Shown here piece by piece: positions 24,404-25,403 of a stretch of DNA of 64,000 nt. The first letter of the stretch is position 1. Each line of letters starts with the position of its first letter. The position numbers were made by a program, and so were the translations under genes. The notes beneath the pieces were generated by a model that did no database searches, was not told the DNA's origin, and was given only the letters and a program-made list of their open reading frames with translations. Source of the DNA: a phage; the sequence record NC_094493.1; one strand, given 5' to 3'.

Positions 24404-25403
24404 AAATGATAGTGGCTTCGTGCAGAAATGCACGTCGAATAACTTCGTTAATTGCTGGAAAATCCGATTGCTAAACGGACAATCAGCAGCTATAATTACC
24501 CTTCCGAACCTGTAGTAGGGAGATGTTTGAAATGAAAAATTTAGGCTTTTTAGGCTACAATCATTATTGTGCTACATACGATGGCAGAATTTACAGTCTG
24601 TATTCTAATAAATTCCTCCATCCTAATGTGCAGAAAAAGACTGGCTATGCTATGGTAACTTTGTGCGAGGACGGTAAAAAGTTCCAAGTGCTCGTTCACA
24701 GAGTGATTGCTATGACTTTTGTTGATAATGATAATCCCAGCGTGAAAACTCAAGTAAATCACCTTGATGGCAATAAGTTGAATAACGCCGCATGGAACCT
24801 TGAGTGGACAACACCTGAGGAAAACACACATCATGCTCATGAAATGGGACTTAAAAAGGACTATGTCAATAAATACAGGTCCCTAGATGATGCCACTGCT
24901 CTTGAAATATGTAGACTGTTAGAGCAAGGTGCAAGGGTAAAAGACATTTGTGAAATGTTTGGTGTCAATCAACCACTTGTAAGTGGTATAAAGAATGGCT
25001 CAGTATACCCAGATATTTCTAAAGAGTTTAACTTTAGAAAAGTGCCAACCTCTAATAGGATAAGTGAGCACAAGATAATAGGTATCTGCGAGGATCTTAG
25101 TGATAGGGTTTTGTGTGTAAATAAAATAGCTAAGAAGTGGGGCGTAAGTTTTAGTGTTGTTAAAGGAATAAAAGACCGTAAGACTTACACCTATATTTCA
25201 AACAATTACGATTGGTAATGTAGTTCAACGACTATCCCGAGAGGGAGTAGGGCGCAAGCTTATGGCGCTCGAAAAGCGAAGCACCCTGAGATGGGTGGTG
25301 ATATAGTCTACTCTGCATGGTAACATGCAGCGGCACGTAATGGTGCGGAGGGTGGTGTTGCGACCACCTTTGAATATAAGGATTCGATAATCCTGTCTGC
25401 TTG
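24404..25403 (+). mobile_element. Putative group I intron interrupting the terminase gene
   Basis: Upstream exon ends in T, intron ends in G; joining 24403 to 25404 gives in-frame ...FIGATI-RDNPEYLAFLEG...; GC-rich hairpins in the 3' part; free-standing HNH ORF inside. Confidence 0.6.
24523..25218 (+). CDS. HNH homing endonuclease inside the intron
   Basis: VHRVIAMTF...VNHLDGNKLNNAAWNLEWTTPEENTHH HNH block; own RBS. Confidence 0.65.
   Translation: MFEMKNLGFLGYNHYCATYDGRIYSLYSNKFLHPNVQKKTGYAMVTLCEDGKKFQVLVHRVIAMTFVDNDNPSVKTQVNHLDGNKLNNAAWNLEWTTPEENTHHAHEMGLKKDYVNKYRSLDDATALEICRLLEQGARVKDICEMFGVNQPLVSGIKNGSVYPDISKEFNFRKVPTSNRISEHKIIGICEDLSDRVLCVNKIAKKWGVSFSVVKGIKDRKTYTYISNNYDW

Follow-up and report, generated by a model that had tools for sequence, protein, structure and literature searches.

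A group I intron with an HNH endonuclease gene at the FDNP motif of the terminase gene of an rV5-like Vequintavirus

The gene for the large terminase subunit (terL) of the phage in record NC_094493.1 is interrupted at positions 24403..25381 of the 64,000-nt stretch of DNA that was analyzed (the window, to which the coordinates refer), and the interrupting segment is almost certainly a mobile group I self-splicing intron, which splits the Ile codon that immediately precedes the conserved FDNP motif. By its sequence, the window is that of an rV5-like Vequintavirus of E. coli: the 2.5-kb terL region shares 96-99% identity with the Vequintavirus phages SophiaRose, HdK5, ECML-10, YP-6 and rV5, and for SophiaRose, HdK5, ECML-10 and rV5 the identity is 98-99%. 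The intron has been described before, as the HNH-containing intron of the rV5 terminase gene. Coverage of the query by the relatives in the nucleotide search was 100%, 71% or 61%, a pattern that pointed to alleles in which the insertion is complete, partial or missing.

Boundaries of the insertion and the restored TerL

The terL reading frame starts at 23660 and reaches a TGA at 24407-24409, and its product matches the Pfam family Terminase_6N (E=6.8e-17), which is the ATPase part. A downstream open reading frame (ORF), 25401-26186, which is opened by a TTG at 25401, matches Terminase_6C, the nuclease domain. A preliminary description of the window had placed the stop of the frame at this TGA and the resumption of terminase coding ~1 kb downstream, and both the ORF list and Pfam confirmed it.

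The comparison with intron-less terminase genes, which had been put forward as a check, was then decisive for the boundaries. The terL annotated in phage I29 runs uninterrupted over 1548 nt, and its alignment to the window showed that exactly 979 nt (24403..25381) are missing from it. The same junction was obtained with six more alleles that lack the insertion (pangalan, EdH4, A6-1, nom, magaca and rV5_ev146). The empty allele reads GCA ACA AT/A TTC GAT AAT CCT GTC TGT TTG AGA GAC AAC CCA (A T I F D N P V C L R D N P), where the slash marks the insertion point. In the window, exon 1 ends with ...GCA ACC AU, the AU being the first two bases of the Ile codon, and exon 2 opens with A UUC GAU AAU CCU, which completes this codon and continues with F, D, N and P. 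The nuclease domain and what remains of the ATPase domain are encoded by exon 2, whose stop codon is at 26184-26186. When 23660-24402 was joined to 25382-26186, a TerL of 515 amino acids was obtained, which is identical to that of I29 at 515/515 positions. Excision restores the reading frame of the host gene and the conserved sequence, which then reads ...GATIFDNPVCLRDNPEYL, and in the spliced protein Terminase_6N crosses the exon junction (residues 25-294) and is followed by Terminase_6C. The retrieved uninterrupted terL genes were all continuous, except for an unrelated upstream intron in two of them.

The first base of the intron is U24403, and the last is G25381, the terminal guanosine (omega G), which is the last inserted base relative to the seven empty alleles and is kept in Avunavirus 19-1-2 and in Phapecoctavirus nepoznato. 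The preliminary description had set the intron ends at 24404-25403, which, judged by the I29 alignment, misses the 5′ end by 1 nt and the 3′ end by 22 nt. Deletion of that segment does join the exons in frame, and the codon boundaries meet, but the product has 508 rather than 515 amino acids and lacks FDNPVCL. The junction peptide given there (...GATI-RDNPEYL...) has to be corrected, since its RDNP is a second DNP, seven codons downstream of the true motif. The DNP that was expected after the junction is encoded at 25386-25394 (FDNP codons 25383-25394), inside the segment that had been taken as the intron. A further candidate junction, 24403..25399, which follows from the U-G and terminal-G rules alone and would give the product ...GATILRDNP, was ruled out by the alignment to uninterrupted terL.

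Group I core and splice-site features

To cover the group I core, the covariance model RF00028 (Intron_gpI) of Rfam, with a gathering score of 50 bits, was run over 1.2 kb (24300-25500, the space to which the E-values refer), as the preliminary description had proposed. The model matched the 3′ half at 25092-25330 (34.8 bits, E=6.6e-07), where P7, P3′, P8, P7′ and P9 were aligned, and the 5′ half at 24393-24754 (24.4 bits, E=8.7e-04), where P1, P2, P3, P4 and P5 were aligned. Both matches sit in the correct register, each on the corresponding half of the model. A natural ORF-less allele was found in phage RudolfGeigy; its intron has 268 nt, and its core is 98.8% identical to that of the window over the parts in common. 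This allele scored 95.6 bits against Intron_gpI (E=6.1e-24), which is above the gathering score. The proposal of a group I intron with an HNH endonuclease is upheld by this score, by compensatory changes in three genera and by the homology of the ORF to I-HmuI.

In the Rfam alignment of the RudolfGeigy intron, the conserved U and G of P1 in the model map to U24402 and G24412, which places the U-G wobble exactly at the 5′ junction set by the empty alleles. The exon pairs of P1 are C24399-G24415, C24400-G24414, A24401-U24413 and U24402-G24412, the last being the wobble at the 5′ splice site. The wobble, the terminal G and the insertion site T-I/F-D-N-P are all conserved in 19-1-2 and nepoznato, and the junction common to the introns of the window, 19-1-2 and the Phapecoctavirus phages is ACC AU/A UUY GAU AAY CC. 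At the nucleotide level, the 3′ core is also directly similar to introns that many other phages carry in their nrd, DNA polymerase, nrdD and thymidylate synthase genes.

The fold was analyzed in an alignment of five sequences, namely the native RudolfGeigy intron and, after removal of the ORF, the cores of the window, rV5, 19-1-2 and nepoznato. The hand-built P1-P9.2 model has 13 helices, 71 pairs and 353 cells (Table 1), and 99.7% of these cells form standard pairs. Two-sided (compensatory) changes were observed in 19 of the 71 pairs, compared with 0-5 in controls in which the partners were slid by 1-3 columns, and none of 500 shuffles attained the observed covariation value. The two strands of P7, UUCAACGACUA and GAUAUAGUCUA, are conserved blocks that align to the Rfam consensus; P7 makes a pseudoknot with P3 and is presumed to be the guanosine-binding helix. 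The GC-rich hairpins noticed earlier in the 3′ part were read as P7.1, P7.2, P8, P9, P9.1 and P9.2. P7.1 and P7.2 are extra helices typical of subgroup IA introns, and from this architecture, together with the P9 extensions and not from a subgroup model, we presume that the intron is of subgroup IA and IA2-like.

P6 and P6a close a 713-nt loop that holds the ORF. Their 3′ strands lie in 25214-25224, as GGUAAU (P6a), a G, and then UAGU (P6), and the UAA stop of the ORF (25216-25218) is inside P6a. In the nepoznato P6a, AUUAC/GUAAU is replaced by AUCAC/GUGAU; the change is compensatory, and through it the stop codon is UGA instead of UAA.

Two other classes of element were considered and rejected. 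For an intein, there is an in-frame TGA 4 nt into the insertion, and no Hint or intein Pfam match was found in the ORF. For a group II intron, no group II Rfam match was found at E<=10 in 24300-25500, and the ORF has HNH and helix-turn-helix parts and no reverse transcriptase.

Several points weigh against the reading as a self-splicing group I intron with these boundaries. The Rfam scores of the window itself are below the gathering score, and a default gathering scan of the whole window returned tRNAs only and no intron; both are due to the 0.7 kb of coding sequence that divides the core. No convincing pairing was found for P10, with at most 3 bp (exon 2 AUU with intron 24408-24410, including G24408-U24410). 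The protein evidence alone permits a +1 shift of the boundaries (24404..25382, with ATT as the Ile codon instead of ATA), which is disfavoured because of the terminal-G rule, the U-G rule and the nucleotide sequence of the empty alleles. P1, P4 and P7 are invariant across the five sequences and carry no covariation information. The independent lineages compared are three phage genera only, and because they are so few we take the covariation as supporting evidence, short of statistical proof. That the intron is spliced in this phage is what we infer.

The HNH reading frame, related introns and rival explanations

The ORF in P6 had been described as a free-standing HNH gene with its own ribosome-binding site, and this is borne out by Pfam, which reports HNH_3 (28.0 bits, cut-off 24.8) and HTH_23, the helix-turn-helix being in the C-terminal half, and by a Shine-Dalgarno sequence, GGGAG, at 24518-24522. 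The ATG at 24532 comes 9 nt after GGGAG. An alternative upstream ATG at 24523 (231 amino acids) is absent in nepoznato, where the ATG corresponding to 24532 is conserved. The codons for the His and the Asn of the HNH motif are 24760-24762 and 24796-24798, respectively. The protein matched PHROG 59 (′HNH endonuclease′) with E=1.8e-50, and its best match among solved structures was PDB 1u3e, which is I-HmuI (E=3.6e-11, residues 8-151); the catalytic H...N...N block VNHLDGNKLNNAAWNLEW was aligned with VDHKDGNKDNNLSTNLRW of 1u3e. With tblastn, relatives of the protein were found in 1967 phage records. These matches show the ORF to be a homologue of I-HmuI, the HNH homing endonuclease encoded by the intron in the SPO1 DNA polymerase gene, and by analogy the protein would be an active endonuclease with the intron-less terL as its target.

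Upstream of the ORF there is a sigma-70-like promoter match (Table 1). At the homologous place nepoznato has a perfect TTGACA-17-TATAAT (about 1553-1581 of the compared stretch), and the ORF-less allele has no TATAAT. The match may drive expression of the endonuclease from a transcript that is unable to splice. Furthermore, CUUCC at 24501-24505 can pair with the GGGAG of the HNH gene, and equivalents with changed sequence are present in 19-1-2 and nepoznato. The resulting hairpin (24501-24522) has a predicted energy of -5.3 kcal/mol, which is weak, and it is no more stable than shuffled sequences (z = +0.76 and -0.31); a role in sequestering the Shine-Dalgarno sequence is kept as a lead only.

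In rV5, the TerL gene lies in three segments, with a homing endonuclease in one of the intervening segments, as reported under ′Introns in terminase′ by Kropinski et al. (2013, PMC3606486), where D. Shub is thanked for defining the intron location; the RefSeq record annotates terL as a three-piece join of the coding sequence (CDS). Intron 2 of rV5 terL (DQ832317 / NC_011041; ORF64ABC, HNH ORF65) is at the same site and has the same HNH ORF, and its 979 nt are 98.0% identical to those of the window. The sole difference lies upstream, where the Walker B codons (FDEG/TQ) of rV5 are interrupted by another group I intron, of 319 nt and with no ORF, which the window lacks. ECML-10 and YP-6 have the single-intron arrangement of the window. 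RudolfGeigy and about 8 other records carry the ORF-less allele at the same site, with a core about 99% identical; in RudolfGeigy P6 is capped by a 17-nt hairpin, whereas the window has 728 nt there (the promoter-like TATAAT, the Shine-Dalgarno sequence, the HNH ORF and P6a). Avunavirus 19-1-2 (78% nucleotide identity) and Phapecoctavirus nepoznato and cardinal (67%) have an intron in the same codon with the same architecture and a homologous HNH ORF in P6.

A second group I intron, unrelated to the one described here, was observed in terL of the relatives at the place that corresponds to 24084/24085 of the window, after the GGU of the Walker B DEG. It has 319 nt and no ORF in rV5, RudolfGeigy, magaca and SophiaRose (84-85 bits with Rfam in rV5 and RudolfGeigy); in HdK5 and rV5_ev146 its length is 883 nt, and it includes an ORF similar to endonuclease VII. 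Intron-bearing alleles read GGT/.../ACA CAA or ACA CAG around it. The window has no intron at this site and reads GGA ACG CAG; other empty alleles read GGC ACG CAG (WM: GGC ACG CAA).

The T4 td, nrdB and sunY introns and the SPO1 DNA polymerase intron (I-HmuI) resemble the intron of the window in having an IA-type core with P7.1/P7.2 and an endonuclease ORF in a peripheral helix, and in being inserted at a highly conserved motif of an essential gene; here, however, the host gene is the terminase. The T4 introns carry GIY-YIG or other endonucleases, not HNH. Group I introns in terL are also described in Lactobacillus phage LL-H (Mikkonen and Alatossava 1995, cited in PMC3606486) and in Pectobacterium phage CB7 (Certrevirus), in which an HNH-containing terL intron was shown by reverse transcription-PCR to be spliced (PMC7344957). 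These are different phages, likened to the window by description, and the experiment in CB7, a related phage, is the nearest experimental support for splicing of the terL intron of the window. In phage LL12, terL is also reported to be disrupted by an intron (PMC6658697). In Vibrio phage IBT_VpB-34 (665-3169 of the compared stretch), terL is split around an HNH ORF, and the 3′ intron core is 71% identical to P7-P9 of the window, which indicates that terL is a site of related introns in phages farther away as well.

The distribution of the intron was surveyed with three 100-nt junction probes against phage records, a record being counted at a coverage of at least 80%. The empty-site junction was found in 97 records, the exon 1/intron junction in 23, and the P6/ORF junction in 14. 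The intron is thus present in about a fifth of the relatives, and 9 of the 23 intron records have no endonuclease ORF; this patchy presence indicates that the intron is optional, and hence mobile. The 97 records, all continuous across the site, contradict the possibility, raised with the preliminary description, that terminase domains encoded by two separate genes represent the ancestral condition. At exon position -3 (C24400), all six intron-bearing alleles have C (ACC) and all seven empty alleles have A (ACA), and it is the C that forms a P1 pair with G24414. Such an association would be the expected outcome of co-conversion during homing; selection for a stable P1 would also lead to it. In about 18 GenBank records of ′Campylobacter phage′ (MG0656xx, host C. 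jejuni), terL is 97-99% identical to that of the E. coli Vequintavirus phages and has the same intron polymorphisms, and the host labels look doubtful.

The following mechanism is modelled on established group I and homing-endonuclease biology. In the pre-mRNA, P1 would form between the last exon bases, CCAU, and the internal guide, so that the U24402-G24412 wobble falls on the cleavage site. From its binding site in P7, an exogenous guanosine would attack after U24402, and the terminal G25381 would then take its place there. The exons would be ligated to ...ACC AUA UUC GAU AAU CCU..., the expected junction being ...GGCGCAACCAU joined to AUUCGAUAAUCC..., with the removal of 979 nt, and the 515-amino-acid TerL would be translated. 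In a mixed infection the HNH enzyme, by analogy, would nick or cut the intron-less terL near the insertion site, and recombinational repair would copy the intron together with nearby exon markers, such as the C at -3.

The strongest competitor of a spliced group I intron is a free-standing HNH gene that split terL into two separately translated genes, the products of which assemble with no splicing. Homing-endonuclease-split nrdA genes in some T4-like phages are a precedent, several GenBank records (e.g. HdK5 and SophiaRose) annotate the terL halves as separate CDSs, the frame of exon 1 meets a stop 4 nt into the insertion, and the ORF from TTG 25401 spans most of exon 2. However, a restart at this TTG would lose the conserved FDNPVCL, and the closest Shine-Dalgarno-like sequence (AAGGA) is 18 nt upstream of it. 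Moreover, the HNH ORF is flanked by a complete, covariation-supported group I core, which is present with no ORF at all in 9 of the 23 intron-bearing records, and exact excision gives a protein identical to the uninterrupted TerL. Such a split is very improbable.

Even less probable is that the intron is a degenerate relic which is no longer spliced efficiently, so that terL would be a pseudogene or would depend on a helper or on low-level splicing. The weak P10 and the sub-threshold Rfam scores of the window would fit this view, but terL is essential for packaging, and ECML-10 and YP-6 (same arrangement) as well as rV5 and SophiaRose (same intron) are viable plaque formers; in addition, all core helices are intact in the window, and its core is only a few bases from the allele that scored 95.6 bits. 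HNH genes beside terminase genes are common in phages, and one might take the HNH protein for a packaging accessory nuclease, of the HK97 gp74 type that helps the terminase of some cos phages, rather than a homing enzyme, which would account for the location of its gene within terL. The ORF is, however, missing from ~106 of 120 closely related records, 9 of which keep the intron, which shows it to be dispensable; its best solved homologue is an intron-encoded homing endonuclease, I-HmuI, and it has a C-terminal helix-turn-helix DNA-binding part; and homologous units of intron and ORF are found at the same codon in three genera. We give an accessory nuclease hardly any credence, and retain the intron with a homing endonuclease gene.

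Gene neighbourhood and significance

The coordinates of the features are collected in Table 1. Terminators are annotated between terL and the next gene in the rV5 and HdK5 records, and the window has a terminator-like hairpin 3′ of terL. A cluster of seven tRNA genes (21744-22556, + strand) lies ~1.1 kb upstream of terL, in the order Arg-tct, Tyr-gta, Ser-tga, one unassigned, Thr-tgt, Met-cat and Pro-tgg. Downstream of it come an i-spanin gene (22978-23376) and an o-spanin gene (23373-23660), whose stop overlaps the start of terL. The cluster includes a tRNA-like gene at 22213-22311 (+ strand, 97-99 nt), to which ARAGORN gives no type and a 4-base anticodon, ′atcc′. It scored 35.5 bits with the Rfam tRNA model; its anticodon loop is rich in U, and ~26 nt are inserted where the variable arm belongs. 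It may be either a degenerate tRNA or an unusual one of type II.

Table 1. Features of the terL region of the window and the evidence for each
Feature	Position	Strand	Basis
terL exon 1 (Walker A/B ATPase part)	23660..24402	+	ORF list; Pfam Terminase_6N; alignment to I29 terL
Group I intron, 979 nt	24403..25381	+	insertion relative to 7 uninterrupted alleles; Rfam RF00028 on both halves; covariation
P1	24399-24404 / 24410-24415 (24399..24415)	+	exon C24399 C24400 A24401 U24402 and intron U24403 A24404; internal guide U24410-G24415; invariant
P2 hairpin, GAAA tetraloop	24419-24434	+	two compensatory pairs
P3	24443-24449 / 25275-25281	+	seven pairs, one compensatory; Rfam alignment
P4	24453-24458 / 24483-24488	+	encloses P5; invariant; Rfam alignment
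P5	24463-24466 / 24476-24479	+	2 compensatory pairs; Rfam alignment
Sigma-70-like promoter match, TTGCTA-17-TATAAT, in P5-P6 of the core, upstream of the HNH ORF	24468..24496	+	consensus scan, 10/12
P6 (GCUA/UAGU)	24489-24491 / 25222-25224 in model	+	sequence
P6a (AUUACC/GGUAAU)	24495-24500 / 25214-25219	+	sequence; comparison with homologous introns
Putative HNH homing endonuclease gene, 228 aa + stop	24532..25218	+	Pfam, PHROG and PDB matches
P7 (A25228, bulged C25229, GACUA / UAGUCU)	25228-25234 / 25304-25309	+	6/6 pairs formed, invariant
P7.1 hairpin, GAGA loop	25235-25246	+	1 one-sided change
P7.2 hairpin	25250-25270	+	2 compensatory pairs
P8 hairpin	25282-25297	+	2 compensatory pairs
P9 hairpin, GUAA loop	25313-25330	+	2 compensatory pairs
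P9.1 hairpin	25333-25346	+	2 compensatory pairs
P9.2 hairpin	25349-25370	+	5 compensatory pairs
terL exon 2	25382..26186	+	alignment to uninterrupted alleles; Pfam Terminase_6N/6C
Terminator-like hairpin with T run, 3′ of terL	26236..26255	+	sequence scan

Three states of the terL site are found: empty, intron with endonuclease, and intron with the endonuclease lost or never gained. It is a tentative idea, and rather an unlikely one, that the terL of Vequintavirus displays, at one site, every stage in the life of an intron and its endonuclease, in genomes that are at least 95% identical, with the endonuclease in a cassette that has its own promoter and possibly a hairpin against the Shine-Dalgarno sequence. 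If so, the C/A polymorphism at -3 would be a mark of co-conversion that also completes P1, and a functional promoter would yield a truncated, unspliceable transcript for the enzyme, whose synthesis would be uncoupled from terL expression.

The value of the finding is mainly one of annotation. In many GenBank records terL is broken up into two or three pieces or labelled ′hypothetical proteins′, although it would be intact after splicing, and the phages affected include some used for phage therapy or biocontrol. The exact junction, 24402/25382, matters for terL-based phylogeny and for the prediction of the packaging strategy, and a junction guessed from the reading frame alone silently drops seven residues of a conserved ATPase motif. 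In principle nothing is new here: the terL intron is a further case of group I introns and homing endonucleases in the most conserved motifs of essential phage genes.

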